64,000 nt of DNA, from positions 128,001 through 192,000 of IMG/VR virus record IMGVR_UViG_3300042256_000013; one strand, given 5' to 3'. The translations under genes and the position numbers were made by a program. The stretch is from a virus. Taxonomy: Duplodnaviria > Heunggongvirae > Uroviricota > Caudoviricetes. Shown here piece by piece: positions 16,662 to 51,204 of this stretch. The notes under the pieces were generated by a model. The model ran no database searches. It saw only the letters and a program-made list of their open reading frames with translations, and was not told where the DNA came from. Position 1 is the stretch's first letter, and every line of letters begins with the position of its first letter.

Positions 16662-16690
16662 ATTATACCATAAATTTTGTTACCATTTCA
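16662..16690 (-). promoter_or_regulatory. TGAAAT-N17-TATAAT promoter
   Basis: Member of the recurring TGRAAY class. Confidence 0.6.
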
Positions 16691-17198
16691 AAAATTCGTT
16701 AACATCTAAGTCGTATTTAATAGAATCCACCATATGGAGTTCTATCAAAAAAAGACAGTAGCTGCTGACTGAACTTCCACGACCTAATCCCCAAAAGATA
16801 TTATGTTCTTTTAGATAATCTACCAACCATATCATACAGCGTAGTAGTTTAGTCATGTTATAGTTTTCGTACAATCCCAATTCATACAGTACTCGTTCAC
16901 GTTGAACATCAGTACTGCACAAATTAAGAAAATAGTCTTCTAGATTGATTTTATCATAAGCTGGATCATAACGCCATAGTTCATGATTCCTATCATGTTC
17001 TATGTTGTAATCAAGCATACGTTCTTCTAATCCGAACTTACGACAATTATCATTGAACTTCAATCGTTCAGATTCATCTTGTTCATTAAGTTGGATATAA
17101 GTTATATCTGCTCCGCAGTTGATTGCATACACAACTGCGTTAAGATCTAAACGAACGTCACCATCCTCGCTTATAGTTCGATTTCCTTGTACTTTCAT
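16680..17198 (-). CDS. dnaE: DNA polymerase III alpha (DnaE) N-terminal palm fragment
   Basis: ERVLYEL...GLGRGSSVSS...L.IELHMVDSIKYDL...FLK aligns with DnaE ERL..EL...GPGRGSGAGS...[21 protein letters not shown]. Confidence 0.8.
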   Translation of the reverse strand: MKVQGNRTISEDGDVRLDLNAVVYAINCGADITYIQLNEQDESERLKFNDNCRKFGLEERMLDYNIEHDRNHELWRYDPAYDKINLEDYFLNLCSTDVQRERVLYELGLYENYNMTKLLRCMIWLVDYLKEHNIFWGLGRGSSVSSYCLFLIELHMVDSIKYDLDVNEFLKW

Positions 17199-17475
17199 TC
17201 TTTTTATCTTCAGTTCCAGTGTTAATATAACTGTCCGAATCAAATACAGTTTTGTTGTCTTCTTCTTTTTGTTGAGCTTCTAAATCAGCTTTCGCTTGAC
17301 GAGTTCGAAGTTCTTCTTCGCATGAGCGAATTACAGAAAACATTTGTTGTATAACTTCATATTGTACACCAGCTATACGTGCTGATGAAATACGCATTGA
17401 GACTTCATTGATTTTATCATAAAGCTCTTGATTACTTAAAGAAGAAGAATCAAAAAATGGATGGAACATACGCAT
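17158..17475 (-). CDS. hypothetical protein
   Basis: 105 aa, MFHPF start, overlaps the dnaE-N start. Confidence 0.7.
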   Translation of the reverse strand: MRMFHPFFDSSSLSNQELYDKINEVSMRISSARIAGVQYEVIQQMFSVIRSCEEELRTRQAKADLEAQQKEEDNKTVFDSDSYINTGTEDKKNESTRKSNYKRGW

Positions 17476-17480
17476 CCCCC

Positions 17481-19850
17481 TTATTGAAATAGATTGGGCA
17501 CTTTTAAGGTAGCCGTAAAGTTTTCACGCTCGTAACGAGCATTATCTTGAACATAATAACTGAATTCAACACCAGTAACTTCAAACTCATAATTCAACAA
17601 CGCACCATGTTCATTATTTTGAATCAATGTATTGAAGAATGTCTCGCCTTGTCCTGGCTGTAAGTACGCAACCACAATTCCAGGGAAATATTCAGCTTTT
17701 ATATTATCTTCTATATATGGATGATTCATAAATCGAGGTACAGTGTCAATCATTTCATTTGATAATCCATTGATTGCATCAACTACAATTCCACGGTTAT
17801 TTAGATCAGTTGGGTCTGTTAATAAGTTAACAGTATCTTCACCAAGAACCAGATATACGTTTTGACGTAAACCATAAATTTCTGAAATGATAGAATTACT
17901 ATAATCAGTATATACCAGAGGATTCAAATTTAAACTAATTTGTGTTCCTTCAGGATGCACTTCTCTGTATAGTACATCATACAGTACATTTCCTGCGTTG
18001 TCAAGGGCAGATCTCACTTTGTAGTTACCAATCACTAAACGAAATGAACCGTCTGGAGTTGGAGCACCACTTGTGGTATTCACAATACCATTGCGAACAT
18101 TAATAACAGTTTGTTTAATACCTGGCCAATTTTTAGTTGTATCAACATAATTTTCTTTAAGAAGAATACGAGGTATTTTTCTAACACCGTAGCGGGGGTC
18201 TGACGCCCTATAATATGGGGCTTGACTAAATGCTGTAGTACTAATAGTATTGAACCAAGTTCTTTCCATCGTTAATGATGGTTGTATATCAGCAGTAATA
18301 TAGTTCTGTCCAAATCCACGAACAATTGTTATATTGAATCGTTTTGTTAAAGATTTACCATTTTTACCAGTAGCTACTACATCGAATTCTAACTTAATAT
18401 CATCATTCGCTGAAAAATCAGTACTTAATGCATATGCAGTACCAGTCATAAAACCATCAGCACTTAAATCTAATCCAAATTTACGAATATCATTAGGTGA
18501 TGTGCTTTCATCAATTTCATACGTTACTAAATCAGAACCACTGGCTACAATTTTAGGATATACTGTATGACCAAAGTATTCACCAACGTGAATAGTTCCT
18601 AAATTAGAATCAGTTTCAAATGAAATATCAGTACCGGTATTGTCATTAAGGATTATACGAAAAATTCTGGTGTTATTGATTATTCCTGAACCAAGAGATT
18701 CATTATATACCCCCAAGTCGTACCAGTTATTTGCATCATATTCAATAACCGTGTTTCCTTGATAAGAACCCTCACTTACAACATATGGATATATTGTAGT
18801 ATCTTTTAGTTGATACAAATGAGTACTTATTGGTTCATCATGGAAATTGGAAGTATCTGATGGTGCAATCCAAGTTTGGTATGCACGGAATCGTTTACCA
18901 GCATAATAAGCATCTGCTTCAGTACTGTAATAACGTTTTACTGAAACTACTCGAATTTTTATATAAGCATCAATTGGGTCTGAATCATATAACATAGTCT
19001 GAATAATCTGACCATTATTTCCATTAAATTTTAACCCACTATTAACTAAATTACCGGTACTATCTTTTACGAGTAAAGGAATTTCTTCAATTAACCCTGA
19101 ACTTAAATCTGGAACTAAAATTGTTCCTGAACCAGTAATATTAGTACTTGGTTTTTCTGAATCAAGAATAGTTAGTACTTCATACGCTGGCATGAATACA
19201 TTGGTTATGTTGTTTATTGTTTGACTTCTTCCGAATGCTTGAACGAACAATCTGCTTTCGGCACCATATCCTACACCACCAATCGTATAAAGATTAGATC
19301 CGTGTGTGGTCAATCCAGGTGTTACCCATACTTCATTTGTGGTGTTATAATTCAAAATACTTGAAGTTGTTCCGAGAACACCACTCGGTACAGTATTTGC
19401 AATTTGACCATCAAGTAATGTTATCACATTGATGCTGTCAATATTGAATGTTAATGATTCTGGGCCATCCCAAATTCCATCTTGTGGACATTCTATCTTA
19501 AAGTAATAAGCATCAATGTAAGAAACTGAACTTAAATCATATGATTTAGTATCGAATTTTACAATGTGTATACCTTGAGTAGTGGTTGAACCAGTTCCTG
19601 CGTTGCCAATTGGAACTAATGAAGAAGTACTTTCTCCTACTGTAACTATAAAATCACGTTCTTCTAAAGTCTCTCCTGCACCAACAATGTTATAAGTAAA
19701 TTCCAAGTACTGGTCATCAGTTAAAACATATGTATCATCGGCAGAAGTAGGTTGATTTTTCTGTAGACGTAATCTAAAATAAGTAGTTTGTCCTTCTTGA
19801 ATTGTATTGGTGTCAGCGATCAAATCCCATTGGGGTTCGAAGTTTGCCAT
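17481..19850 (-). CDS. virion structural protein (baseplate/tail-like, beta-rich)
   Basis: ~790 aa, T/N/S/G-rich with an Ig/cadherin-like segment (GLDLSADGFMTGT); TAAATA at 19883-19888. Confidence 0.6.
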   Translation of the reverse strand: MANFEPQWDLIADTNTIQEGQTTYFRLRLQKNQPTSADDTYVLTDDQYLEFTYNIVGAGETLEERDFIVTVGESTSSLVPIGNAGTGSTTTQGIHIVKFDTKSYDLSSVSYIDAYYFKIECPQDGIWDGPESLTFNIDSINVITLLDGQIANTVPSGVLGTTSSILNYNTTNEVWVTPGLTTHGSNLYTIGGVGYGAESRLFVQAFGRSQTINNITNVFMPAYEVLTILDSEKPSTNITGSGTILVPDLSSGLIEEIPLLVKDSTGNLVNSGLKFNGNNGQIIQTMLYDSDPIDAYIKIRVVSVKRYYSTEADAYYAGKRFRAYQTWIAPSDTSNFHDEPISTHLYQLKDTTIYPYVVSEGSYQGNTVIEYDANNWYDLGVYNESLGSGIINNTRIFRIILNDNTGTDISFETDSNLGTIHVGEYFGHTVYPKIVASGSDLVTYEIDESTSPNDIRKFGLDLSADGFMTGTAYALSTDFSANDDIKLEFDVVATGKNGKSLTKRFNITIVRGFGQNYITADIQPSLTMERTWFNTISTTAFSQAPYYRASDPRYGVRKIPRILLKENYVDTTKNWPGIKQTVINVRNGIVNTTSGAPTPDGSFRLVIGNYKVRSALDNAGNVLYDVLYREVHPEGTQISLNLNPLVYTDYSNSIISEIYGLRQNVYLVLGEDTVNLLTDPTDLNNRGIVVDAINGLSNEMIDTVPRFMNHPYIEDNIKAEYFPGIVVAYLQPGQGETFFNTLIQNNEHGALLNYEFEVTGVEFSYYVQDNARYERENFTATLKVPNLFQ

Positions 19851-19909
19851 ATCTAATCTCCAAAACATAAAAAGCTTTGTCGTATTTATTCAATGGCCTT
19901 AATTAAAAA

Positions 19910-19932
19910 TAAAGGACGCCTAAGCGTCCTTA
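19910..19932 (-). terminator. intrinsic terminator
   Basis: AAGGACGC-ctaa-GCGTCCTT; near-identical copy at ~56504-56524. Confidence 0.75.
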
Positions 19933-19935
19933 AAA

Positions 19936-21351
19936 TTATTCATCATCATCGTTATAGACGATATTCATATTAAGAAGTTCTACAAGTTCTTCTTCGTAGA
20001 TTTTCCAAATCTTATCATGATTCTGTAGCAGATCGTTGTATTCATCCATCTTAGCTAAAGCATCTTCAATTTCTTGATTTACCTTAACGTAGTTTTCTTT
20101 CGTCCAACGATACGCTGCGAAATTCACGATGTTCTGTATATTATCATCTGATGCTTCAATTTCACCATTCAGGGATGTCACAAAATCAACAACTTCAGCA
20201 CGGTTTTCAAATTCTTTAATCTTAACAGTCATGTCATTATCAAAGCATTCTTTAACCAGAATCTTGTAACGCACTTCTGCGTCTGCATCTGCTAGTAGTT
20301 TTTCATAACGTTTAATGTAGTACTTGAATCGGAACTGAACGAAGTCCTGGATTATTTCTTGAACATTGCCATAACTTTTAACTTTTCCGTTTTCACCTAA
20401 AACATTAAGGGTATGTGCCAATTTTGTTGAAACGTCAAAATATTGAAGCACATCCATTTCTGTCCATGTAGTACTAAGACCACGTGGAAGTTTTATGGTA
20501 ATATCAACCTTACCTGAACTGTTATCATCGTAACTACGGATTTTACCAGAATCTTCCATTGCAATCAAGTCCTCAACGAACTTTTCAAGTTTCATACGTG
20601 GAGCTAACCCCGTAATACGAACAGTACTTGCATCGATTACTTGAGCTTTTCCAAAGAAAGTATATTTACCTTCTCCACGATCTTCAACAAAATCATTCGC
20701 ACCATAGCTTGCATAGTACGGCATCATTTCTAAAAGTTCTTCACCACGGATAGCACGGAGAGTGTTCTCAATGATTTCGTTCATACGATATGGGAAGATA
20801 AAACTTTTATACGCGGTTGCAGTACCATCAACACCAAGTAGTGCTAAGGGGATAATTGGTAAGAAGAACTTAGGTTCCATTGTAGTACCGTCATAGTTTT
20901 CTTGCATCGGTACAACATCCATATCACGAAGTACCAAGGCTTCGGTGATTTTTGTTTTCTTCACATAGGTATAACGAGGGCTTGCTGGTTCAGGGTTAAC
21001 CTGAGTACCGAAACCTCCACGCTTACCAATAAGCGGATAGTTATTCACAACTGGACTTGCAAGGTTCTGTAATGTACCGCTTGCCGACGCATCACCATGA
21101 AGGTAGATACCATCACTGATCATACGACCAGCACAAGATACAGTTTTGATTTCACCACTTACTTTACTCAAAGTGAAGATAGCTTTACGCTGTGAGTTTT
21201 TGAAACCATCAATCCCAGGGAGAGCACGATCAAAAGTACTCAAAGCATATTCTAGGGATGATTGATTGATATAATCTGAGCTACCATAGCCTAACAGAGT
21301 TAGTGCATTAGGTACAATCTCAGCTTGGGTTTTCTTTGTTGATTTACGCAT
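19936..21351 (-). CDS. 52: type IIA topoisomerase, GyrA/ParC-like subunit (T4 gp52)
   Basis: RALPGIDGFK.SQRK, Y.HGDAS, G.FG, catalytic ASPRYT, NYDG...EP. Confidence 0.92.
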   Translation of the reverse strand: MRKSTKKTQAEIVPNALTLLGYGSSDYINQSSLEYALSTFDRALPGIDGFKNSQRKAIFTLSKVSGEIKTVSCAGRMISDGIYLHGDASASGTLQNLASPVVNNYPLIGKRGGFGTQVNPEPASPRYTYVKKTKITEALVLRDMDVVPMQENYDGTTMEPKFFLPIIPLALLGVDGTATAYKSFIFPYRMNEIIENTLRAIRGEELLEMMPYYASYGANDFVEDRGEGKYTFFGKAQVIDASTVRITGLAPRMKLEKFVEDLIAMEDSGKIRSYDDNSSGKVDITIKLPRGLSTTWTEMDVLQYFDVSTKLAHTLNVLGENGKVKSYGNVQEIIQDFVQFRFKYYIKRYEKLLADADAEVRYKILVKECFDNDMTVKIKEFENRAEVVDFVTSLNGEIEASDDNIQNIVNFAAYRWTKENYVKVNQEIEDALAKMDEYNDLLQNHDKIWKIYEEELVELLNMNIVYNDDDE

Positions 21352-21400
21352 TTCCTTTGCCTCTTTGCTAATAAGGGGAACTCCTGTTCCCCACTAATAA

Positions 21401-23392
21401 TTATGCTGCTTCGTCTAATTCACGAGTCCAATCTTTACGGTCATCAGCACGTTCTTTGTTGAAGATCAAATCTAGGGTTTCACCTAGTGAACCATCATCA
21501 GTAATCGCTACTGCTACACCATTAGATAACGCATCACGGAAGTTTGTTACTTCAAGAGTACCAAGACCTTTCGCACGTGTTGCTTTCCATCCTTTCCATT
21601 CTTCAGGATTATATTCATGGACGTTATGACCATAGAAGTACTTCGATTCTTTACCTTTCTCAAGGATAATAAACGGAGTTTTGAAGATATAGATGAATGG
21701 GTCTTCTGGATCAGAGAATAACTCAGGCCAGAATTTATAGAAGAAGTTCACCACAAGAGCACCGATGTTCTTACCATCTTCATCTTCGTCAGCACAAATG
21801 TATAACTTTCCGAAGTTCATATTCGCACGAACGGCACGTTCACCTGGTATGAGATTTAGTGATGCCATAATATCATGTATAGCTGATGGTTTATCAGCAG
21901 TACCCATTAGGTCTTTTGTCTTCTCTTTACCGTTTACGTTCTGGATTTTACCACGTAGTGGAAGAATACCATGAATTTCAGAGTTCCTTGCAGCAGTCAT
22001 TGAAGATACTGCGGAATCACCTTCTGCGATAAGTAAAATACATTTAGAACGGTCAGTACCGTTAGCATCACGTAATTTAGCAACTTTACCTTTCAGTAAA
22101 CGTTTTGCCATTTTACGATCTTCATCAGCATCTTTCTTGTTTGTACGTTCAGCACAACGTTCATAAATTTCTTCAACCCAATCGTTATTTTTCTTAACGA
22201 GTTCTGCGAAGAATTCTTCAGTCATTGCATTCTGTACTGGTTTAATTACATTTTCATTAGTTAGCTTCGTTTTGATCTGAGAGTTGAATGTTGGAGTATT
22301 CATCTTAGTGACGTTATAAATCAACAAACCTTCTTCAATATCAGAACGGTTAGGGGTCATTTTCTTTTGCTTAGATTTACGTTCTAGGGCTTTGATAACT
22401 CCTAGTGCGAACTTCTGTTGGAAGGTATCTAAGTGAGTACCACCTTCGAGGGAAGGAGCGTTGTTAACAAGACCTTGCATATGTAGGTTCTTGCTAAGAC
22501 CATCAACTACACCAGGAACAATATAGAAAGTACTGTCAAAGCCAGTAGCTCCGTCTTCAACTTTCAATGTCATAGTGTTTTTATTTGCAGAGAATAGACC
22601 TTTCTTAGCAACAACAATACGCTCACCATTTAAGAAAATCTTATATGATGGGTTTGCTGCTGCAATTTCTTTTAAGATACTAAACACGAGTTCAAGTGGT
22701 AAAGTATGTACTTTAAACACTTCTTTACTGATTTTGAATCGTACTGTAGTTCCAGTTTTCTCTGCTTGTACTTTACGAATACTTGGTTCATTAATTCCAA
22801 GTTCAGGAAACATCGCTGTACCCTCAGTGAACTTCTGAGTGAATTTATATGTACCATCATATTCAGAGTTAGCTTTATCGGTTTTGTAAGGTTTACCTGC
22901 ACGGTGAATTTCGAGTTCAGCTTTCTCAGATACGATCATAACTACAGAACCGCCTAAGCCATTCATACCGATAACATTAGTACGTTCGTCATCGTTAAAG
23001 TTACGTCCAGTTTTCATTTCGGTTAGAACCATAGTACAGACATGTTTCTGCGTTTCTGGTACATAATCGATTGGAATACCACGACCGTTGTCGCTAATTT
23101 CGAATTCTAAATCATCTTGATTATACTGGACTTTTAGTACTGGATCTTTAGTACCAGCTTTAACGAATTCATCCAGTGAGTTATCCACGATTTCGCGGAA
23201 AGATGTTAGTAGGGCAGGAACCCAACCTAAGTTTTGCACGTTGAACCCTTCTTCTCCAAAAAGAAGTACAGGTTGCTCATGTTCTGATTTCGAACCCAAA
23301 TACATTTCAGTACGGATACGAGCATGTTGGTATTCAGTTAATTGCTGGACACCATGTTCAGCGAGAACAGAACTTTTCTTTTCCTTTGCCAT
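21401..23392 (-). CDS. 39: type IIA topoisomerase, GyrB-like subunit (gp39+gp60 in one ORF)
   Basis: EIVDNS.DE, DNGRGIP, GMNGLG, AEGDSA, PLRGKI.N, D.D.DG.NI, KGLG. Confidence 0.92.
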   Translation of the reverse strand: MAKEKKSSVLAEHGVQQLTEYQHARIRTEMYLGSKSEHEQPVLLFGEEGFNVQNLGWVPALLTSFREIVDNSLDEFVKAGTKDPVLKVQYNQDDLEFEISDNGRGIPIDYVPETQKHVCTMVLTEMKTGRNFNDDERTNVIGMNGLGGSVVMIVSEKAELEIHRAGKPYKTDKANSEYDGTYKFTQKFTEGTAMFPELGINEPSIRKVQAEKTGTTVRFKISKEVFKVHTLPLELVFSILKEIAAANPSYKIFLNGERIVVAKKGLFSANKNTMTLKVEDGATGFDSTFYIVPGVVDGLSKNLHMQGLVNNAPSLEGGTHLDTFQQKFALGVIKALERKSKQKKMTPNRSDIEEGLLIYNVTKMNTPTFNSQIKTKLTNENVIKPVQNAMTEEFFAELVKKNNDWVEEIYERCAERTNKKDADEDRKMAKRLLKGKVAKLRDANGTDRSKCILLIAEGDSAVSSMTAARNSEIHGILPLRGKIQNVNGKEKTKDLMGTADKPSAIHDIMASLNLIPGERAVRANMNFGKLYICADEDEDGKNIGALVVNFFYKFWPELFSDPEDPFIYIFKTPFIILEKGKESKYFYGHNVHEYNPEEWKGWKATRAKGLGTLEVTNFRDALSNGVAVAITDDGSLGETLDLIFNKERADDRKDWTRELDEAA

Positions 23393-23425
23393 TTTTCAAA
23401 TTCCTTTTTGTTTCTTAGCCATTGC

Positions 23426-23454
23426 ATTATAGCACAAATTGTTTCTTTGTTCCA
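23426..23454 (-). promoter_or_regulatory. TGGAAC-N17-TATAAT promoter
   Basis: Upstream of the topoisomerase operon. Confidence 0.7.
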
Positions 23455-23488
23455 AAAAAATAACGACGCATCTCTGCGTCGTCAGTAT

Positions 23489-23860
23489 TTATAGTAGAAC
23501 CAATATAGCGATTATCGCGTAGTGTGTCAAGTGGTGAGCCATTTGGTCAATACCTAAGTACCACCAAAATTCTGGCTTACTATAATCCGTACTACGAGAA
23601 GCTTCGACTTTGACTTTATCAACGATAAAGTGTATTCCAAAATCAAGTAGTGCAACTGCTATCATTATCTGAAAAGATACACCCATACATAATGCTATCA
23701 AGAACGTACCTACAAGGTGCGTAGCAGCATGTGCAGTGAGGGGTAGTTCCCATCCCTCAACTTTGAATTTTCCTAACATGTAACGACCTTGTAAGAAGTA
23801 ATCACATAATAGATGTTTAATTTGGTACACGAATAGTAAGATAAAAATCGTGGTTATCAT
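23489..23860 (-). CDS. DUF3307-like membrane protein
   Basis: KHLLCDYFLQ, H.IVD..K, GIDQMAH motifs with TM segments. Confidence 0.7.
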   Translation of the reverse strand: MITTIFILLFVYQIKHLLCDYFLQGRYMLGKFKVEGWELPLTAHAATHLVGTFLIALCMGVSFQIMIAVALLDFGIHFIVDKVKVEASRSTDYSKPEFWWYLGIDQMAHHLTHYAIIAILVLL

Positions 23861-23869
23861 ATTTTGCCT

Positions 23870-26421
23870 TTATTTGACTAGTAATAGTTGGAACTGCGAT
23901 TGTGGCGAACCTTCTTCATCACTCCAGTACTTATGGAACTTCTCTGGTGTTGCAGCTTGTAGTACTTCACAATTAGCTACCACATATACTTTATGTGATT
24001 GAATTAGTCTTTGCCAGAATTTAATGGCATCATCGGATTGTAGGCGTCCACTTAAAATTGGAGTACCTTCAACTTTAACAATATCCATGAACATTTGATA
24101 AACTACACCTTTAACCGAACGGCTAGAAGCTGTTACATCAACGTTAAACCATCCCTCATCCACATGACCTTTCACGGAAGCAATTGCTTCTCCAGTATCA
24201 TTGTCATATGCCATATATCCATCATGTCCACGGTACGTTGTCCACTCACCATGATCTTTAACTGGAGTCATATTTTTTGGGGTATTTGCTTGTGCTTCCT
24301 TGTCTACATACACTTGTGGGTCCATTCCCATAAATGAATCATATCTAAGTGGCATTTCTTCAAGTCTCTCAGTACTTGTTCCTGAATTGACTGGAGCAGA
24401 ACGTTGTCCAGGTTTAACTGGCTTACCTTGAAGATCATATTCTTGCTCATCTGAATCTTCATCAAGTAAACCTTTATTAATTAATTCTTGGTCATCAGCA
24501 TCTTCTATATCATGTTCTAGTTCAGCATTTTGAACAATGTCTGCTAGACCACGCATACTTGATTCTGCCATTGCTGCTTCACCACGTTCTTTCCGTTTTG
24601 CAGTACGTTCTACATAATAAGCAAGTGATTCATCAAAATCAGTAATTGATTCAGAATATAGTAGTGCTTTATTAATGTGCCGTGGTTCAACTTCTGGATT
24701 GTAATATGCGTCAAATACCTTATTGAATAATTCTTCGATTTCTTTTTCTGAACCGATGAAATTATTTTCACCATCATCAATATCAACCGTATACATTTTT
24801 CCTGACGTTTGGCAAACAATTTTTGCTTTTACATCTGCCATTAGAACAATGAAAAACCCTTCGTCTTGAATATAATCATCAAATTGAACTTTACGTGAAC
24901 TATCATGGTTTAAGAATCCTGAGTTCTCATTGATATTCTCAACTGCGAATAGCATACCTTCAAGGTTAGCATCAGGAGCATTTTCTTTTTCAACCATATC
25001 TTGTAGAGCATTAATTCCACGCATGTTACCAAGATAATTGACAGGTAATTTAGCCATTTGTTCTTTTGTAAAATCAATACGAAGTTTCTCACCACCATCA
25101 GGTTTAACAATAATGAAATAATCATCACGGTGTCCGTGACGGAATACTATATCATATGGTGTATATCCACCATCAACACGTAATGTGAATTGTTCTGGAT
25201 CATGGTTTTTGCTCAATCCATGAATCTTTGGTTGTTCACCAAATTCTTGCCATACTTTCAAATACAAATCACCCATTAAGCTATCACCAGGTGCTGGGTA
25301 TTCTTGATCACGTTCAAATTCATGACCATCATCAATATTCTTTTCAGTACTGTCAAATTCATGATTATCTTCAGCATGTAGTTCATTATCATAGAAGTTA
25401 CTAACTTCACGATAAATCAATTTCATTGCCTTATTAGCACGAGCATCTTCTTTGTACTTACGAAGTTCTTTTACTATATTCGCTTGTGGATATGATCTTA
25501 AAACATGTTGAATAGCTTTAGAAATATCTGCGTTCTTATTACCAGTTATTGAATCTGGATTTTCCTCAAGCCATTCATTAGCGAAATTAGCTAAATCTTT
25601 TACTTGTGGTCCAAATTCAATACCACCACGATAATACGCATCAGGGTCTTTTCCAGAAATATAATCAGGATGCTGATGGGCTTGTTGATCTTTTGGATTT
25701 AAATTTTTATTAACTACCTGTTGAATAGTATGTTGAAGTTCATGTTCAACTGTACCAATAGAATAATTAAGAGAATGAGCAACACCATCTATATTAGTAT
25801 TCTTAATATCTTGATAAGACGGAATACCTAAATCTAACTCATTTTGAGTTCCACGAACAGCACTGCTGCCACCTTTATGAAGGAACTGATTACTCATTTT
25901 CATCTTGATTGTAAGATTATTAATTAGTTCTTTGGTGCGTGGATTCTTTTTCAAATTTTCAGGTAATGAATTATAAATTTCATCAGGATCAATATTCAAA
26001 TGAGTACTGCTATTGATGTATTTCTTCAAATCATCAGGTGCTAGTACTGAAGCACCGTACTTACGTTGGAATCTACGTAAGAAATTCATTAGTGCTTCAG
26101 CAGCTTCAGTTTTATGTTGATTAACAAGTTCATGTTGTTTCATCACACCCATAGTTAGAAGTACTGAGCCAACATATTTTTGAACTTGTTTCAGTAGTGT
26201 TTGTGGTACTTTAATAATACCAACACCACTTGCTTCATCAAGTTCAACTTCTTCTGATACATGAGATGGAAGATCAGAACCTTTCTTAAGATTCCCATCC
26301 TTCTCGTCAGCTTTATTAAAATCGTGAGCAACACTTTGGTCGATACCTGCGTCTCTAGTAATATCTGGATTGTGAGCAGCGGCAGCCATTAAATGTGCCT
26401 GAGCTTTGCTTTTACTTGGCA

Positions 26422-41949: not shown

Positions 41950-41950
41950 T

Positions 41951-42652: not shown

Positions 42653-42665
42653 CCTGTACTCCTAT

Positions 42666-43027: not shown

Positions 43028-43039
43028 ATAACCCTCCGA

Positions 43040-43687
43040 TTATTTTAGGATCTTCAGAACCTTAGCGATTTTGTTTTCGTTTTCAGAAAGCCATTGATTC
43101 ATTTCTTTCTTAGAATTAAAGTACTTATTACCTACAGTACCTTTAACACTTTCAAGTTGAATACCAATACGTTTAGGTTTAGCAGATTCTTTCATCTCAC
43201 GATCCATTGGAGTTGGTTCTGGTAAATCACCAGCATCATCAAATCCTGCATCATCTTCGAAATCAAAATCACCTTCTGGTGTATCTACATCAACAGATAC
43301 ATCATCAGTACCAAAATCATCACCTAAATCTGCAACATCTGGAGAACTTGTAATGTCACCAGTTAGTTTTAGAGTTTCAGTACTAATCTTGTCTTTAACA
43401 TCCATAATTGTTTTTACTGCATGATCAAGAAGACCACTAATATTATTACGGAATGATTCTGCTGCTTCAACACCATGTTCAGCTTTAATACGGTCCAATA
43501 GTGGTCCAAGTACGTCAACACCCATGTTGTTGATTACTTCTGCTTGACGTTGAAGTTTATCTACGATTTCACCCTTAACTGCTAGTACAATTTCAGCTTT
43601 CTCAATGTTTGATTCATTTAGTTGAACAAACGTTAGAGCTTCAACGCGACTGCCGGATTCCATCATTTTTTGAAATTGTTTTGACAT
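43040..43687 (-). CDS. hypothetical head/scaffold-like protein
   Basis: 215 aa, acidic linker, MMES/LNES/MKES motifs. Confidence 0.7.
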   Translation of the reverse strand: MSKQFQKMMESGSRVEALTFVQLNESNIEKAEIVLAVKGEIVDKLQRQAEVINNMGVDVLGPLLDRIKAEHGVEAAESFRNNISGLLDHAVKTIMDVKDKISTETLKLTGDITSSPDVADLGDDFGTDDVSVDVDTPEGDFDFEDDAGFDDAGDLPEPTPMDREMKESAKPKRIGIQLESVKGTVGNKYFNSKKEMNQWLSENENKIAKVLKILK

Positions 43688-43718
43688 TATTATTTCCTTA
43701 TAAATGAAATTTATATCC

Positions 43719-44555
43719 TTATTTAGTTATGAATCCTTCTTCTTTTAAGAAGTTCAATACTCTTACTTTCAAGTCTTGGGCTTTTTTCTTGTGTTCAGCA
43801 ATAACTGTATCAAGTTCTTGAGCCTTATCGTACTTAGATTCTTTAAGTACGCTTTGACGTTCTTTAGCAGCTTTAATAGCTTCCTTAACAACGGTAGTGT
43901 ATTGAATACCAGAACTAATGATACCAAGTACTTTAGTATCAGTTAAGGTTTTACCAGCGTTTAGTAGATTGCGTAATGCTAAAGCTGATTCATACATCAT
44001 AATATTGTCAAGAACAATTTGATTTGTTGCTAAACACTTTATGCTATATGTTTTAGCATTCTTCATACCAAGCACTGATTCTTCAATAATTCCCCAATTC
44101 ATTCCTGGAACGTATGGACGATTTTGTTGTACAGGTGCTGAAGCCTGAGATTGCTGTTGTTTGGTTTGTGGTCTTACTTGACGCATACTAACGGCGATAG
44201 GATCTTCAATGAAGTTCTCGCCTTCTTGTGGTTCATAATAACCATAAATGTTATCATAATCATTATCATCAGAATCAAAATGAACATATTCTTGACCATA
44301 AAATGATTCTTCATGAATATTACCATATTCTCCGGTCAGTTCTTGTAGACCATTTAAAAGGTTTTTAGTTTCAGATAAATTTTGATCACGATTTTGTGAA
44401 TTAATTTGACTGATTATATCACCGCCAGGTGTTCCAGTTCGAATTGCAGTAGTTACTGCTCGACCTTCTTCAATATCATCAAATGCTGACATAATATCAG
44501 ACATTAAATCAACACCTTGTTTACGTTGTTCGTATTCTCCGTAATCGTCACTCAT
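43719..44555 (-). CDS. hypothetical protein
   Basis: 278 aa, coupled operon. Confidence 0.7.
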   Translation of the reverse strand: MSDDYGEYEQRKQGVDLMSDIMSAFDDIEEGRAVTTAIRTGTPGGDIISQINSQNRDQNLSETKNLLNGLQELTGEYGNIHEESFYGQEYVHFDSDDNDYDNIYGYYEPQEGENFIEDPIAVSMRQVRPQTKQQQSQASAPVQQNRPYVPGMNWGIIEESVLGMKNAKTYSIKCLATNQIVLDNIMMYESALALRNLLNAGKTLTDTKVLGIISSGIQYTTVVKEAIKAAKERQSVLKESKYDKAQELDTVIAEHKKKAQDLKVRVLNFLKEEGFITK

Positions 44556-44770
44556 TGCTTACTCCTTTTAATCGATACAAAATATTCAGTTCCATCTTTT
44601 TCTATCTTATTTAGAACTCCACGAGAGATGAGTTTATTCCCCAACTCTCGATAATATTCACCAAAGTATTCTGCTGGCATCTCAATATTTGCATCAATTT
44701 TCTTAATGAGACGGTATTCTTCATTTGATACAATTATAGTAAAACCTTTATTTGTACCTACCGTTCTCAT
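44552..44770 (-). CDS. small hypothetical protein
   Basis: 72 aa, coupled at both ends. Confidence 0.7.
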   Translation of the reverse strand: MRTVGTNKGFTIIVSNEEYRLIKKIDANIEMPAEYFGEYYRELGNKLISRGVLNKIEKDGTEYFVSIKRSKQ

Positions 44771-45696
44771 TATCTACCTCTCATTCTTGAACAAAAGTCT
44801 ATGATCTGAGATAATATTTCATCAGCATCATGCATACCTTCATTACCTTGTGGTGATTCTTCACCTGTAGTATCTTCTGAACCTTCAATATCACCAATAG
44901 CTTGTGATAATCTACCTAGACTTGGATTTTCATGAGTTAGTGGAGAAGATTGTTGTTCAATACTTCTTTGTTGTTCTGGAGCCATAATAGCACCTTCACT
45001 GTTGTCCAATTCATCGTGTTCATCATCTTCTTGTACTGGTTCAATATCATCTAACCCAAATACATTTACTTGATTTGATTTTGATGGGTCTTTTGTAACT
45101 ACTAAACTTTTATCAGGAGTTGGTCCAATATCTACACCAACAACGTTAGCAAGTTCAGTACTACCAGCTTGGTTTCCTGGAACAGAAACTTTAAAGTTAG
45201 TATTGGACGCATTACGTTGTAAATCTGCTTGTTTCATCTTGATAGCAGTTTGTGGATTTACTTGAGATTGCTGTTGTGCAGTATTTTGTTTATTGATTTG
45301 GTTCGCATTTAATTGTGAAGTTAAATCTTCATTTAATTCATCAAATACTAAAGTTTTAATTTCAGCTAATGTTAAGTGAGAATTCTCACGCAACGCAAAA
45401 GAGCAATTTGCTTTATAGAAATCTTCCAGTTCTGAAACTGTAAGTCCGTTAAGTGCGTTAACTTCTGCTGATTCATTAATCTTATTAGAAGCGAAAAGTT
45501 TATAATTCTCGCTCATTTGTGCTTTGTACTTCTGTAGTAGCTGCATGATAGTTCGATTATCCGAATTATCCATTGCCTGGTTAATTTCTACAAAATCGCC
45601 ACCATCCATAGCACTCAGAACTTGATTTACTTCCATTTGTAAACCATTCGCGTCAGCGAATTTTTGAAGCTCTTGTGCAGTTTGTTGTATATCCAT
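44770..45696 (-). CDS. hypothetical late protein (Q/N-rich)
   Basis: 308 aa; TAAATA at 45736-45741. Confidence 0.75.
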   Translation of the reverse strand: MDIQQTAQELQKFADANGLQMEVNQVLSAMDGGDFVEINQAMDNSDNRTIMQLLQKYKAQMSENYKLFASNKINESAEVNALNGLTVSELEDFYKANCSFALRENSHLTLAEIKTLVFDELNEDLTSQLNANQINKQNTAQQQSQVNPQTAIKMKQADLQRNASNTNFKVSVPGNQAGSTELANVVGVDIGPTPDKSLVVTKDPSKSNQVNVFGLDDIEPVQEDDEHDELDNSEGAIMAPEQQRSIEQQSSPLTHENPSLGRLSQAIGDIEGSEDTTGEESPQGNEGMHDADEILSQIIDFCSRMRGR

Positions 45697-45713
45697 ATTA
45701 TCTCCAAAAAGAA

Positions 45714-45761
45714 AAACCTTTTCTGTACATGAAGATATTTATCATGTACGGGAAAAGGTTT
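45714..45761 (-). promoter_or_regulatory. terminator-like hairpin with late promoter TAAATA in its loop
   Basis: ~19-bp arms 45714-45732/45742-45761, followed by TTCTTTTT on the minus strand. Confidence 0.6.
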
Positions 45762-46140
45762 GCTTAGTAATACTAATATTCCGTTCAGAGGTAGTACTAT
45801 TGAATTTAGTTAGACGTGCACCATTAACAGTAGTAGGAAGTACCAACGGTACACCAGATACTGATAATTCTACATCCATTGGTAATGCGAATTTAAACGT
45901 ACTTACAACACATTCTCCCCATGCACTAGGAAGATTGTAAAATGATGAATTGTTATTTTTACTCAAGTCAACTTCAGTTTTTACTACACTCACCATCATT
46001 GGTCGGTCGAATACCATAACACATTCCAGCAATCTTGACAAATTCATTGCACCAGTAAATTCTCCATTAACAATTGTTGGAGTACTACCATCACCAATAT
46101 CAATTACAGTATTGATTGTGTAAAATGTATAAGAAATCAT
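45742..46140 (-). CDS. hypothetical protein
   Basis: 132 aa, AGGA RBS. Confidence 0.7.
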   Translation of the reverse strand: MISYTFYTINTVIDIGDGSTPTIVNGEFTGAMNLSRLLECVMVFDRPMMVSVVKTEVDLSKNNNSSFYNLPSAWGECVVSTFKFALPMDVELSVSGVPLVLPTTVNGARLTKFNSTTSERNISITKQTFSRT

Positions 46141-46141
46141 G

Positions 46142-46297
46142 TTAATCCTTTTTGCCTTTGTATTCTTTATAACCGAAGAAATTTGATTTAGGCATTCTTG
46201 TAATTAGTGGATAATTTAGACCACCACTAACAGATGCAATTGAACCAGAACTGGTAGCACCGGATGAAGCATTTTCATTTACTTTTTTCTTTTTCAT
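46142..46297 (-). CDS. small protein (51 aa, not in ORF track)
   Basis: Hand translation MKKKKVNENASSGATSSGSIASVSGG...GKKD*; exactly fills the gap between neighbours. Confidence 0.65.
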   Translation of the reverse strand: MKKKKVNENASSGATSSGSIASVSGGLNYPLITRMPKSNFFGYKEYKGKKD

Positions 46298-46298
46298 A

Positions 46299-46568
46299 TT
46301 ATTCACCTTTATTCTTACGTTTTTCGTCTAAGGTAAGATTTTCTAAACCCTTTTCGAATTTGCGATAGTCACGGTTTTTAATACTCAAGAACAAACGACG
46401 AGTCAGGTCGTTTGCTACTTCTTCATCAAAATCTTCATCAATACTATCTAGTAAATTGATTATCGAATTTATTGCATGATCAGCACGATTTCCTAAACTT
46501 TGTAGTTTTTCTTTGTCTGATGTATAGTTAACTATACTATCCAGAAGATTGTGCTTTTTATTCGACAT
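46299..46568 (-). CDS. hypothetical protein
   Basis: 89 aa, immediately downstream of the helicase. Confidence 0.7.
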   Translation of the reverse strand: MSNKKHNLLDSIVNYTSDKEKLQSLGNRADHAINSIINLLDSIDEDFDEEVANDLTRRLFLSIKNRDYRKFEKGLENLTLDEKRKNKGE

Positions 46569-46569
46569 A

Positions 46570-48075
46570 TTACATCCTACCATTCAAAAAGTTTCTCATA
46601 CTAGAAACTTTATCCTCAGTCTTTGATGTATTTATATTTTGAGATTCAGGAGTACTGTAATTTTGTACATCATCTGTACTGGTACTTGGTTTATGCGTAA
46701 CTGTTGTTAATTTATTCTGTAATGAACTCATAGCATTACCTGGAGCTTGTGGAGTACTGAAAACATTACTTTTGCCTATCATTACTTTTCCACTATGTTT
46801 GAAACCAGTATTAATTTCCATTTCCTGAACAGTATGAGGATGATCTAGTACTCTAAGTGAATCAATATCATAAGACATGATTAAACGCGAACCTACCGCT
46901 GAACTATTACGAGTTTTTTGGAAGTCAAATACCAGTTCACCACGATCTTTACGTGCATCAATGTAAATTACGTTATCAGCAGTATAAATCTTAGAGATAC
47001 CACCTGCAATTTGTGCTTGGGATTTAATATCTTCTCCAGATACACCACTACGGTTAAACTGACAAGCCGTGAATACAGTTATGTCCATTTTCATAGCAAG
47101 AGCACGAAGTTCTTCGGATACGAACTTATCTTTAACGAATGCATTAGACTTATCATTCGGACCACAACGATCAGATGTTAACAAATCGAGATAATCCACA
47201 CAAATATAGTCAAGCTTAATGCCAGTTTTGATTTGAAGTTCACGAATATAACTTTCAATGTCATTAACAGTGGTTACAGATTCAGGCAAACGATGAATAC
47301 GCAATTTACCATTACTGCGTTCCTCAATTTTGACCTTAGCAGCAGTCTCATCAATGTCAACTTTGACTCTATTCTGTGCAGTGTTAACCATCATACCATA
47401 GATACGAACAGCAACTAATTCTGATGCCAGTTCAAGTGTAATGTATGCACCATTAAGTCCAGCTTTACTGAAGTTCACGGCTAAGTTTTGGAGCACTACT
47501 GACTTACCACCACCGGAGGCTGCTGCGAAGATTTCTAATTCTTGCTTACCGAAACCACCAAACAGTTTATAGTCAAAAGTTTCCCAACCAGATTTGAATG
47601 TACCTTGTTGATCTGCCAATTTACGAATTACTGCTTCTGGATCTTCATAAATGTCAAGACCAATATCATTCTGTACAGTTACTAACATAGCTTCACGAAT
47701 AAGTTCTTCGATTCCACCATATCTTTTTTGGTTTACAAGTTCCATCCCTTGCTGAATTGCTTGAGCAAGAGCTTTATGACGACAAAATTCACCAATACTA
47801 TCAAGTACTGCTTGTTGATTCAAGTTAGGTACAATAGTTTCAGAATATGAAAAATCTGCATTGTGTTTAATGTCATTAAGTGTAGGGGTTACATTGTACT
47901 TAGATGAATAATCATGTACATATTGAATGCTTGAATGATATTCCTTATCGAAATAATCAGGTTTCAAAACATTCTTACAACGAACATACAAGTCCGGTGT
48001 ACTAAAAATTTGCTGTAGCAAATATAATTGATATTGAATATCGTATTTTCTAACGTCCGTGTTACTTACAATCAT
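46570..48075 (-). CDS. 41: replicative DnaB-like helicase (T4 gp41)
   Basis: SGW..FD..L.GG, AASGGGKS, YITLEL, VDYLDL, SEELR.LA, TA.Q.NR, KTRN. Confidence 0.92.
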   Translation of the reverse strand: MIVSNTDVRKYDIQYQLYLLQQIFSTPDLYVRCKNVLKPDYFDKEYHSSIQYVHDYSSKYNVTPTLNDIKHNADFSYSETIVPNLNQQAVLDSIGEFCRHKALAQAIQQGMELVNQKRYGGIEELIREAMLVTVQNDIGLDIYEDPEAVIRKLADQQGTFKSGWETFDYKLFGGFGKQELEIFAAASGGGKSVVLQNLAVNFSKAGLNGAYITLELASELVAVRIYGMMVNTAQNRVKVDIDETAAKVKIEERSNGKLRIHRLPESVTTVNDIESYIRELQIKTGIKLDYICVDYLDLLTSDRCGPNDKSNAFVKDKFVSEELRALAMKMDITVFTACQFNRSGVSGEDIKSQAQIAGGISKIYTADNVIYIDARKDRGELVFDFQKTRNSSAVGSRLIMSYDIDSLRVLDHPHTVQEMEINTGFKHSGKVMIGKSNVFSTPQAPGNAMSSLQNKLTTVTHKPSTSTDDVQNYSTPESQNINTSKTEDKVSSMRNFLNGRM

Positions 48076-48082
48076 TTAAACC

Positions 48083-49129
48083 TCAAATCCATTTTTCAGT
48101 TTGTACTCTAATGTCGAATCTATCAGTGTATATACTTTTATGTAGTAATTGTAAACAAAACAATCTTCCATACTTAGCACATGCTTCATCAAAATCCTTA
48201 ATGTGACGAATTCCCTCTCCGTCACGAACCGCACCAAAATCAGGTAATGCTACACTGAATCCGTGCTCAATAGCTTGTTCAATCGTAACTAATCCATCTT
48301 TATCACGATCAGGAACAATAACTATTATTTTACCACGTTCCTGAGCTTTCTTCAACAATTCAATTTGTGAAGTACTAAGGAAGTAGTTATTAGCAGATAT
48401 TCCACCCATTAACGCTGCGTCAATTGGTCCTTCTGCTACCAGAATTATTTGAACTCTGTCATCATTTAGTAAATCGAAGTTATAAAAAATGCTCGTACTC
48501 ACTTGATTACGATAGCGATATTCGCTGTTTTTATCAATGTGACGAGCAGTATAACCAATGATTTGACCATTCATGTAATACGGAATGATGAACCGTTGGA
48601 ACATGTAAAATTCTTTTGAAGGACTCCAATATAAATCTAAGTCCAATAGATACGGATTACGATCATTGACTGCATTAACAACTTTCAAGAATTCTTGAGG
48701 AATATTAGGAGAATTCACCCATTCTATGAAAGGTTTAGCGTCTGAAGGTAAATCACGCTGTACTATTTTTTGGTACAATTTTGATGCCGCAGTATCTTGT
48801 ACTTCGTAATCACCACTTTCTACCATTTCTTTTGCGATTAGTTTAATACTAATCATTTCTTTATCTGATGCACCATAAGAACGAAGCAAGGATTCCATAT
48901 CCTTGCTTATATATCTTCCTGGGGACCAAACTGTTTTTAAATGACAGTTAAAACAATTATACACAACTGAACCATCATTACGGAACATGTGATTTCCACG
49001 TCCTTTAGTGTCTGGTCTTGATTGTCCTCTTGTCACACAAGCAGGACAATTATGTTGATTCCAACGATCCATCATTGGTGCAGGATTGTGCATAATTGAT
49101 GCCATAATGTCTTGTATCTGATTCATCAT
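48083..49129 (-). CDS. 61: DNA primase (T4 gp61-like)
   Basis: Zn ribbon CPAC...YNCFNC, IIP....G.IIGYTAR, TOPRIM EGPIDA and PDRDKDG, KD. Confidence 0.9.
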   Translation of the reverse strand: MMNQIQDIMASIMHNPAPMMDRWNQHNCPACVTRGQSRPDTKGRGNHMFRNDGSVVYNCFNCHLKTVWSPGRYISKDMESLLRSYGASDKEMISIKLIAKEMVESGDYEVQDTAASKLYQKIVQRDLPSDAKPFIEWVNSPNIPQEFLKVVNAVNDRNPYLLDLDLYWSPSKEFYMFQRFIIPYYMNGQIIGYTARHIDKNSEYRYRNQVSTSIFYNFDLLNDDRVQIILVAEGPIDAALMGGISANNYFLSTSQIELLKKAQERGKIIVIVPDRDKDGLVTIEQAIEHGFSVALPDFGAVRDGEGIRHIKDFDEACAKYGRLFCLQLLHKSIYTDRFDIRVQTEKWI

Positions 49130-49161
49130 TCATTTCCTATGTCTGTGTCAGTACTTCGAGC

Positions 49162-49190
49162 ATTATACCACATTTTTTCAAATCATTCCA
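49162..49190 (-). promoter_or_regulatory. TGGAAT-N17-TATAAT promoter
   Basis: Upstream of the primase-helicase operon. Confidence 0.7.
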
Positions 49191-49191
49191 T

Positions 49192-50163
49192 TTATCTACG
49201 AATCAAAATCTTAGGGATTGTGTTCAACGGATTGTAATCTTTCTTGATCACATTAGGTGGATAATTTTTAACAATAGGAGGAATAGCAGCTACCACACGA
49301 ACCCACATAAGTTGTCCGTGGAAATTGAATGCTCGTATTCCTTCTAATGGAATTGGAATACCATTTGGATCAAAATCATTCTCAATGTATTCTTCACCAT
49401 CAAGTTTAATAATGAACCACTTATAATCTTCTGCATCCTTTGGAGTTTCATTTAAAAGACAACCTTGTAATTGAACTCTACCAATGAAATTATTGAAATA
49501 AAATGCGATAGTACTTAAACCATCTACTAAACCATATTGAGCATCAGCCCTAATTGCAGAACTATGCAATACATCGAATTCACCAATAATACCATTAGAG
49601 ATAGGTTTATTTTCTTTATCTTTAATTGGTAGATATGATGGATTTTTGTCTTTGCTTATTTCTTCACTTGGTGTAAATGTTGGTGCAGCTAAATTGCTGA
49701 TAGTTAATTCAGCACTTGCTTCATAGTTCAAGCCAGTATATAAGTACTCTGTAGGTTCAATTAGATCTCCATCCATTGTAACCTTAGTAATACTCCAGCG
49801 GTATTTTGAACCAACACTTAAATCTTGGATAACTCCAGCAGGAACCATACATCCATAATAGACTTTAACTTTATTACTAACAGTTGGTCGTGCTTGTCCA
49901 GCTTCAGAAACCCAAGATGGTTCTATTTTGTCAAGTACTGTTTCGAAGATTCTAGTATCCGAACGTGCATCAAAGATGCTGAACACTAGATATTGATTAT
50001 CACTAATCAATGTATATTTTCCATCAGCATTATGAATAGTAAAGCTAAGTGGATTGTTTGCACCTCTATAAATGGTTAGTTTCTGTTGTGAGAAAGGCAT
50101 ATTAAAATTGCCTAAAGAAACTTCATTGTTATAAGGATACATGTAAACGCCATGATGTGCCAT
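49192..50163 (-). CDS. probable virion structural protein
   Basis: 323 aa, beta-rich; TAAATA at 50201-50206. Confidence 0.6.
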   Translation of the reverse strand: MAHHGVYMYPYNNEVSLGNFNMPFSQQKLTIYRGANNPLSFTIHNADGKYTLISDNQYLVFSIFDARSDTRIFETVLDKIEPSWVSEAGQARPTVSNKVKVYYGCMVPAGVIQDLSVGSKYRWSITKVTMDGDLIEPTEYLYTGLNYEASAELTISNLAAPTFTPSEEISKDKNPSYLPIKDKENKPISNGIIGEFDVLHSSAIRADAQYGLVDGLSTIAFYFNNFIGRVQLQGCLLNETPKDAEDYKWFIIKLDGEEYIENDFDPNGIPIPLEGIRAFNFHGQLMWVRVVAAIPPIVKNYPPNVIKKDYNPLNTIPKILIRR

Positions 50164-50216
50164 GTTAAACCTCTATAAATATAATATACAATTTATACAA
50201 TATTTATGGAAGTCCT

Positions 50217-50570
50217 ATGAATGAATATAAAACATATCCGTTCGTGACAATTCTTGAACACGACGATATAATCTATTATGGGATTATCAAAATCAAAAGT
50301 AAACAATACATTACATTGTACTGCTTCTCTGAGATGGATGAATCCCTTCAAGAAGAACTGCTATTGCTGGCTAATAACTGGTGGTGGCAAAGTAATCGAA
50401 CCATTCCTATTTGTTTATTCATGCAAGAAGAAATGGAAAAATTTGAACCATATACAAAACGATTTAACACTGACCAAGTGACAATTCATAGCGGTCCAGT
50501 TATCTCATTAAGTGATCTGCCAACGAAACGCATTAAGCGTAGAAATGTTGCTCTTAAGAAGAGGAAATAA
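50217..50570 (+). CDS. hypothetical protein (late)
   Basis: 117 aa, WWWQSNRTIPI motif; TATAAATA at 50174-50181. Confidence 0.75.
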   Translation: MNEYKTYPFVTILEHDDIIYYGIIKIKSKQYITLYCFSEMDESLQEELLLLANNWWWQSNRTIPICLFMQEEMEKFEPYTKRFNTDQVTIHSGPVISLSDLPTKRIKRRNVALKKRK

Positions 50571-51204
50571 TATATTCTACAAGTGCATTTAACTGAACAA
50601 CTATCATCAAACTATAAGCGTATGCATGAGGTTTTTTGAAGTATCTTAACTTCTTACCTTCAGCATCAAGACCAATACTCTCATAATCCCATATAACTGC
50701 CCTTACCTCATCCCAACTATTCATACTTTGACACTGACGCTTACCTGGACGAATCATAGCAATAAACATTGCTAATTCATCTATACTTTTCGGTTTCCAG
50801 ACACGAAGCAATGTAATATGCTTTTTAATCTGAGATAATTCTTCAACGAATTCTGGAACTAATAATAGATCCCAATCAGGCTCTTTGTTCATTAACTCCT
50901 TTAAATGATCCCTATCACGAACATGCTCATAAGCCGATTGAGACAGAATATCAACTTTTTGGTATCCTAATCTTTCGGCTTCTTTGTATTGTATACTTGC
51001 TAATCCACTAATTGGATCTACTGGTATATTATCAAAATGAACACCACTATTGTGAGGAATCAATCCATCTTCAGTAATTTTCTCTACACTTCTGGTACAA
51101 GGAAGTTGCTCTATAACTGACTTTCCATCTTTAAAGTCAATATCAATATCAGTACGAGCTTTACGGTAATTAATAGTTTGAGAACTCTTGTGATCCGTAT
51201 CCAT
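50554..51204 (-). CDS. dnaE: DNA polymerase III alpha (DnaE) catalytic C-terminal fragment, miniaturised
   Basis: TDIDIDF (PDFDVDF), HNSGV (HAGGV), KVDIL (KFDFL), LAMFIAMIRPG (ALFRPG), FKKPHAYAY (FNKSHSAAY). Confidence 0.85.
   Translation of the reverse strand: MDTDHKSSQTINYRKARTDIDIDFKDGKSVIEQLPCTRSVEKITEDGLIPHNSGVHFDNIPVDPISGLASIQYKEAERLGYQKVDILSQSAYEHVRDRDHLKELMNKEPDWDLLLVPEFVEELSQIKKHITLLRVWKPKSIDELAMFIAMIRPGKRQCQSMNSWDEVRAVIWDYESIGLDAEGKKLRYFKKPHAYAYSLMIVVQLNALVEYIISSS

Follow-up and report, generated by a model that had tools for sequence, protein, structure and literature searches.

A split, minimal form of the alpha subunit of DNA polymerase III (Pol III alpha) has been known since 2021 from jumbo phages of group 2.2, which are of the Rak2/121Q/GAP32 type (Iyer, Anantharaman, Krishnan, Burroughs and Aravind, 2021, Viruses 13:63; PMC7824862). 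Sections 3.4.1 and 3.5 of that paper describe an N-terminal protein that binds nucleoside triphosphates and a C-terminal protein that binds Mg2+ and template, which are encoded by distant genes, carry no other Pol III domains, accompany a family-B polymerase (PolB), and may cooperate in the synthesis of one strand or in repair; its authors propose a basal position for the mini form. Here we analyze one more member of this system, encoded in a 64,000-nucleotide stretch of DNA (the window) that spans bases 128,001–192,000 of the 371,104-bp phage record IMGVR_UViG_3300042256_000013, a record with direct terminal repeats. We refer to its two genes as the N-half (16680..17198) and the C-half (50554..51204).

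Measured against the system as those sections describe it, nothing essential differs: the standalone N-protein has the GS subdomain of the palm, the standalone C-protein has the carboxylates and the fingers subdomain, the genes are distant here too (33,355 bp apart), and they again accompany a family-B polymerase and a T4-type replisome in the absence of other Pol III alpha domains. The original prediction, made from the letters of this stretch, had implied that the pair was new, a claim that does not stand because Iyer et al. (2021; PMC7824862) had already published the system. Our additions are modest and comprise single-chain forms (one of them Rep-coupled), the anchoring of the two halves in separate replisome clusters, and quantitative structural, complex-prediction and selection support; the sections cited above mention neither unsplit versions, nor a Rep-coupled version, nor the separate-cluster anchoring. 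The paper on the Pectobacterium phage CBB genome (PMC5259590) had gone no further than to mention a 'truncated' Pol III alpha, 172 amino acids long, and our literature search found no experimental work on the split enzyme after Iyer et al. (2021).

The cellular enzymes DnaE1 and PolC (E. coli, 2HNH/5FKU; T. aquaticus, 2HPI/3E0D/4IQJ; M. tuberculosis, 5LEW; G. kaustophilus, 3F2B) share with the phage pair the palm and fingers fold, the order of the motifs (GS loop, DxD, K.D, RPG and KSH..Y) and the three catalytic aspartates. Unlike these single chains of ~1,160 amino acids, the phage pair totals 388 amino acids in two chains, has no PHP, thumb, beta-clamp-binding/HhH, OB or tau-binding domain, and is not the main replicase of its genome. 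Where the usual C-family polymerase is one polypeptide of ~1,000–1,400 amino acids with a PHP domain, the N-half has ~95 residues before the palm. Cyanobacteria such as Synechocystis and Nostoc also encode DnaE in two pieces, DnaE-n and DnaE-c, in which a full-length DnaE is interrupted at another place and its parts are joined into one chain by split-intein halves. The phage pair resembles this arrangement in drawing Pol III alpha from two distant genes, but it is intein-free, its break falls between the GS loop and the DxD strand, and its product would have to remain a heterodimer. Another phage-borne C-family enzyme is that of the group 3.2 jumbo phages (Bacillus phage G type), described in PMC7824862 as a full-length, host-like, single-chain, PHP-containing Pol III alpha that serves as main replicase; the pair studied here is instead minimal, split and accessory.

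The closest relatives of the genome are Xanthomonas phage XbC2, Erwinia phage Kaldavass, Cronobacter phage GAP32 and phage CBB, all of them Mimasvirus, Rak2-like jumbo myoviruses, and among these XbC2 and Kaldavass carry the closest orthologues of both halves (95–98% protein identity). As the original prediction had it, a T4-type replisome surrounds the pair, the window holding Pfam matches for a gp32-like single-stranded DNA-binding protein, UvsX, a DnaQ-like exonuclease, a UvsW-like helicase, a DnaB-like helicase and a gp44-like clamp loader. The gp43-type polymerase for which it had advised a search is also present, as a complete family-B polymerase of 1010 amino acids (PF00136 plus the PF03104 exonuclease domain) that lies ~5 kb past the end of the window.

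The two half genes

The two genes are almost certainly the halves of one split mini enzyme. They are separate open reading frames (ORFs) that share a strand and have individual start and stop codons. Read in the sense of that strand, the C-half gene precedes the N-half gene, so that gene order is the reverse of protein order. The genes and their motifs are as follows.

16680..17198, minus strand: N-half of the split minimal Pol III alpha (PF07733, phrog_11127, family profile)
16761..16784, minus strand: GRGSSVSS motif, N-half residues 139–146 (coordinates by translation; DnaE alignment)
50554..51204, minus strand: C-half of the split minimal Pol III alpha (phrog_11778, profile, model, structure search)
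51136..51150, minus strand: DIDID (D19, D21, D23), aligned to MPDIDIDF of M. tuberculosis DnaE1 (coordinates by translation)
50950..50958, minus strand: KVD (K83, D85), aligned to GLLKMDFLG of DnaE1
50740..50751, minus strand: RPGK (R152–K155), aligned to ALYRPGP of DnaE1
50614..50637, minus strand: KKPHAYAY (K190–Y197), aligned to YAFNKSHAAGY of DnaE1

The N-half is 172 amino acids long when read from the ATG at 17198, a start common to all homologues (an upstream TTG would give 187 amino acids), and its C-terminal part runs from GRGSSVSS to a terminal EFLKW. It matches PF07733 (DNA_pol3_alpha) over positions 21–95 with an E value of 2.4e-8, which passes the curated cut-off, and phrog_11127 with an E value of 2e-84. 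For profile comparisons we used two family alignments, one of 27 N-half sequences (A2) and one of 36 C-half sequences (A1), in which identity goes down to ~32–40%. The A2 profile aligned with residues 322–392 of E. coli DnaE (E 1e-3) and 336–406 of M. tuberculosis DnaE1, placing in N-half residues ~97–171 the first part of the palm with its nucleotide-binding GS loop and leaving residues 1–95 without a family assignment. The GRGSSVSS motif, whose counterpart in E. coli DnaE is GRGSGAGS, would form a GS loop of the Pol-beta type, the site at which an incoming nucleotide is bound by its triphosphate. G139, R140, G141, S142, S143, V144 and S146 are invariant in the 27 aligned homologues, all of which stop at EFLK or EFIR plus zero to two residues.

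Residues 1–95 (16914-17198, minus strand) drew from Pfam solely a sub-threshold match to DUF6648 (E 2e-4, under the cut-off and found in two of the 27 members), which we did not take as meaningful. The PHP domain itself (PF02811) had no match in the whole 371-kb genome at E≤10, whereas all 14 control genomes matched.

The C-half, a protein of 216 amino acids that starts MDTDHK and has DIDID at residues 19–23, contains the remaining palm, including the carboxylates that bind metal, together with fingers of reduced size. It matches phrog_11778 with an E value of 2e-108; its only Pfam match is a sub-threshold one to the fingers, and PF17657 (fingers) is matched by 19 of the 36 family members, with a best E value of 3e-5. 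Because a single-sequence phmmer search of the C-half against the PDB returned only noise, a family profile or a structural model was needed. The A1 profile placed DnaE chains on top with a marginal match (E 0.02) and ran colinearly along M. tuberculosis DnaE1 at 413–424 (DIDIDF), 567–665 (G..K.DFL to RPG) and 765–787 (F.KSHA..Y), with one weak segment. Firmer support for homology than this marginal match comes from the predicted structure. The AlphaFold2 (AF2) model of the window's C-half, with a predicted local distance difference test score (pLDDT) of 91, had Pol III alpha or PolC as all of its best 13 Foldseek matches. An exhaustive VIA search of 48,161 PDB representatives likewise returned C-family enzymes as all of the best seven (Z 9.5–6.0, ~196–212 residues aligned), with the next unrelated match at Z 4.1. 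The model aligns structurally to residues 394–781 of E. coli DnaE.

The motifs of the C-half are conserved in kind and in place. DIDID corresponds to DFDVD (D401, D403, D405) of E. coli DnaE, the first two of which are, on this alignment, the likely catalytic carboxylates; D19 and D23 are invariant and D21 is kept in at least 90% of the 36 homologues. KVD, which matches the KMDFLG motif of E. coli DnaE, would supply the third catalytic aspartate and the lysine that contacts the incoming deoxynucleoside triphosphate (dNTP), and we take the E. coli counterparts of K83 and D85 to be K553 and D555; G80, K83 and D85 are invariant in the family. In the fingers, RPGK is the counterpart of the RPGP motif of Pol III alpha (R152, P153 and K155 invariant) and KKPHAYAY that of the DnaE motif NKSHAAGY/NKSHSAAY (K190, H193 and Y197 invariant). 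The thumb is absent, with ~58 residues between DxD and K.D versus ~150 in DnaE, and the C-half ends at DnaE residue ~781, so that it has no clamp-binding, HhH or OB domain.

With DnaE residue 392 as the last one aligned to the N-half and 394 as the first one aligned to the C-half, the halves abut within one or two residues and together make up, gap-free, the palm and shortened fingers of Pol III alpha. Neither half has a Pfam intein or Hint match at E≤1. Moreover, the stop of the N-half comes two residues after FLK and the distant C-halves begin three to five residues ahead of DxD, which leaves no room for split-intein halves.

Prediction of a heterodimer from the window's own pair gave ipSAE values of 0.90, 0.90 and 0.91, versus 0.00 for the best of three controls; in calibration, 58 of 80 solved complexes and 2 of 110 mismatched pairs attained the ipSAE mark. 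The runs agreed in at least 94% of contacts, the partners had pLDDT values of at least 87, and the interface comprised ~200 contacts. In the predicted complex the strand before the GS loop (N-half residues 134–137) pairs with the DxD strand (C-half residues 22–24) to complete one beta-sheet, and the cut would therefore pass through the nucleotidyltransferase fold itself. N-half residues 1–95 touch the conserved FDNIPVDP loop of the C-half, with the invariant W75 placed against C-half residues 57–58.

The two halves also occur together. They were found in 94 and 96 phage records, with a near-identical host breakdown, and when large and diverse jumbo contigs of IMG/VR were chosen via one half, all ten held exactly one copy of the other, 52–300 kb off and in at least two cases on the opposite strand. 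IMG/VR holds at least 583 C-half and at least 494 N-half loci, and a profile search of 1.84 billion representatives found 592 family members at E≤1e-3, nearly all of ~190–200 amino acids. None of 160 IMG/VR loci with 500-bp flanks held the other half, and on one further contig (L171) the gene directly after the N-half was not a C-half. A pattern scan for the C-half over one genome per prokaryote species found none, which, with one pattern only, lends weak support to the description 'phage-specific'. The ratio of nonsynonymous to synonymous substitution rates (dN/dS) against relatives was 0.04–0.10 for the N-half and 0.02–0.04 for the C-half, indicating strong purifying selection.

These results bear out the core of the original prediction, which had claimed two ORFs abutting in the DnaE alignment to a total of ~390 amino acids, a C-fragment that keeps the catalytic Asp, RPG and HA.AY motifs and lacks clamp-binding and OB domains, an N-fragment with no intact PHP domain, and no intein. 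Co-occurrence and dN/dS, two of the checks that it had proposed, came out in its favor, and the heterodimeric minimal C-family nucleotidyltransferase that it had pictured gains support from the complex prediction and from natural fusions of the halves.

Natural single-chain forms and replisome neighbourhoods

Only two non-split members were present among the best 150 of the 592 family representatives, both on small metagenomic contigs. Their genes, and the neighbor of the second, are as follows.

L008:1066-2193: P0285, single-chain form of 375 amino acids, with an N-part at 9–185 (hhalign E 2.4e-33) and a C-part at 190–370
L172:3171-4181: P0347, single-chain form of 336 amino acids, with a shorter N-part and a C-part
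L172:1516-3174: Rep-family neighbor of P0347, 552 amino acids, with a PF03090 Replicase domain (E 2.5e-13) and a helix-turn-helix

The AF2 model of P0285 (pLDDT 92, predicted template modeling score 0.90) matches C-family polymerases only. In the VIA search it reached Z 22.1 to 5lew (323 residues aligned, root mean square deviation 4.8), 19.0 to 2hpi and 17.9 to the PolC structure 3f2b, with the next family at Z 4.6; in Foldseek its best 18 matches were all C-family, at a best E value of 5.6e-9. Because structural alignments of the fused model extend back to DnaE residues ~10–15, the family-unassigned residues 1–95 of the N-half may contain a remnant of a PHP domain. The start of the P0347 gene overlaps the stop of the PF03090 Replicase gene by 4 nt, and the PF03090 family is one that we take to include plasmid initiators with primase activity. 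This arrangement suggests a replication module, made up of a Rep protein and a mini polymerase, of a small plasmid- or phage-like element. Further such forms did not emerge: P0285 had no relatives in viral_contigs, P0347 had no fused relatives among 5.8 billion proteins or in genome_contigs, and a pattern scan of metagenome_contigs found no relatives of its Rep neighbor. P0285 and P0347 would be convenient proteins for a first test of activity.

In the window, each half lies among replication genes.

14652..15605, minus strand: gp44-like AAA+ clamp loader (PF13177, AAA, Gp44_lid), ~1.1 kb downstream of the N-half
46570-48075, minus strand: DnaB-like helicase (PF03796), downstream of the C-half
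48083-49129, minus strand: putative primase, named solely by the annotation of its CBB orthologue
54084-55568: UvsW-like helicase (ResIII/DEAD matches), upstream of the C-half
55597-56514, minus strand: standalone DnaQ-like 3'-5' exonuclease of 305 amino acids (PF00929), 4.4 kb upstream of the C-half

The N-half is found 1–2 kb upstream of the clamp loader in two other contigs (L173 and L174) as well, with the same arrangement in phage CBB, and this neighborhood is kept in relatives at only ~38–54% identity. The C-half, for its part, has the DnaB-like helicase and putative primase 1.4–4 kb downstream, and its position between the UvsW-like helicase and the primase/DnaB pair recurs in the distant contigs L009 and L175 (~42–47% identity). 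Each half is thus anchored in a conserved replisome cluster of its own, which ties both to the replication fork, and the separateness of the two clusters may explain why the two genes stay apart. The DnaQ-like exonuclease is present although PolB has an exonuclease domain of its own; it could serve as a proofreader of the mini polymerase.

Proposed activity and role of the split enzyme

We consider it likely that the products of the two genes are the subunits of the 'minimal split DNA polymerase III alpha' known from jumbo phages of group 2.2 (Rak2/121Q/GAP32-like), and that this enzyme is, most likely, a small templated polymerase beside PolB. In the mechanism that we propose, the two proteins would assemble post-translationally into an obligate heterodimer in which the cut lies in the middle of a Pol-beta-like nucleotidyltransferase fold, the strand and GS loop of the N-half pairing with the DxD strand of the C-half. 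The incoming dNTP would be held at its triphosphate by the GS loop, the two metal ions would be bound by the C-half residues D19, D21 and D85, and K83, R152 and the KKPHAYAY helix would position nucleotide and template. The result would be a small DNA polymerase, template-dependent and of low processivity, acting beside the family-B replicase at the fork, where it might extend primers or fill short gaps. We favor a role at the fork because of the conserved replisome cluster around each half and the coupling of a Rep-family initiator gene to one single-chain relative. The conserved neighborhoods would point, if anywhere, to such a role rather than to the non-replicative job that the original prediction had entertained.

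Several points weigh against this assignment. No biochemical or genetic data on any member were found in the literature, gene neighborhood is guilt by association only, and virion genes are interspersed in the same region. Complex prediction shows, at the level of a model, that the halves fit as one fold rather than that they bind in the cell, and split-gene halves can pass it through their likeness to solved single-chain Pol III alpha structures. L172 is the one contig on which the Rep coupling is based; the searches for further fused or Rep-coupled forms found none, so that it stays a single case. In the alignment, the glutamate of the N-half EFLK occupies the place of an arginine of E. coli DnaE, presumably R390. 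Finally, templated synthesis on duplex DNA would not be guaranteed, because the thumb of Pol III alpha is absent, as are all its modules for binding duplex DNA or the clamp. That the split mini enzyme is a templated polymerase appears to us reasonably probable.

The missing modules also bear on an alternative in which the heterodimer is an active nucleotidyltransferase of the Pol-beta fold that does not copy a template, for example a terminal transferase, a modifier of DNA ends or bases, or a maker of nucleotide signals; this corresponds to the non-replicative job of the original prediction. The thumb, HhH/clamp-binding and OB modules, all absent here, are those that grip primer-template DNA in Pol III alpha; below the C-family enzymes, the fused model is nearest to small nucleotidyltransferases, among them ANT(2''), CCA-adding enzyme and MenT (Z 3.5–4.6); and the genome already has a complete PolB, including its own exonuclease domain. 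Set against this are the invariant fingers motifs RPGK and KKPHAYAY, which serve templated synthesis in Pol III alpha and which a non-templated transferase would have little reason to keep, together with the position of both genes within replisome clusters and the fused form that follows a Rep-family initiator gene, and we judge such a transferase quite unlikely. Still further from what we observe would be two catalytically dead proteins that are structural or regulatory parts of the replisome or that act independently of each other. Our literature search turned up no demonstration of activity for any member, and the two genes are never adjacent in the loci examined and sit in different gene clusters, but the catalytic and nucleotide-binding residues are all invariant or nearly so over ~60% sequence divergence, co-occurrence is strict (10 of 10 contigs), natural fusions are known, and the predicted interface of ~200 contacts completes one beta-sheet. 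We regard this alternative as very improbable.

The resemblance to a truncated or split dnaE (the CBB paper, PMC5259590, called the N-half 'truncated') might also be read as the mark of decaying remnants of a captured bacterial dnaE, or of the exteins of an intein-split DnaE joined by trans-splicing. This resemblance is superficial only. With dN/dS values of 0.02–0.10, hundreds of homologues that are intact and uniform in length, no match to intein or Hint families and termini that are too tight, the idea is refuted, and we give it practically no weight.

For the polymerase that we favor, a more specific role can be pictured: the mini Pol III alpha might be a polymerase dedicated to primer extension or hand-off, with a function analogous to that of Pol alpha or Pol I, in a two-polymerase division of labor. 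It would take over from the phage primase (or, in the single-chain version, from a Rep-type initiator) before the family-B replicase engages, and the DnaQ-like exonuclease at 55597-56514 could proofread its products. This proposal is tentative, and we think it unlikely to be right as it stands; if it were true, a C-family core would be at work in the absence of PHP, thumb and clamp-binding domains. If active at all, the enzyme would be the smallest known C-family polymerase core (~340–390 amino acids) and a natural polymerase active site built from two separately encoded chains. The system thus bears on the minimal requirements of Pol III, on how Pol-beta-like nucleotidyltransferases gave rise to the C-family replicases, and on the reasons for which certain jumbo phages retain another polymerase beside a gp43-type replicase.

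Neighboring reading frames and minor observations

The T4-type late promoter TATAAATA had 6 matches in the window versus 8.25 expected, none of them upstream of either half. In a distant relative, a contig of 266 kb (L009), the DnaB-like gene near the C-half (L009:16746-18104) shows weak Pfam matches to intein/Hint families, so that this phage group may contain inteins, the mini polymerase excepted.

A small ORF lies directly upstream of each half on the minus strand, that at 17158-17475 overlapping the start of the N-half gene by 41 nt and that at 51170-51529 overlapping the start of the C-half gene by 35 nt. Given these overlaps, each half is probably co-transcribed with its upstream neighbor. 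In CBB, the orthologue of the upstream neighbor of the C-half bears the annotation of a virion structural protein, an odd companion for a polymerase gene. At its other end, the C-half gene is met by a convergent ORF of 117 amino acids (50217-50570, plus strand) with a 3' overlap of 17 nt, which corresponds to CBB gp288, a hypothetical protein.

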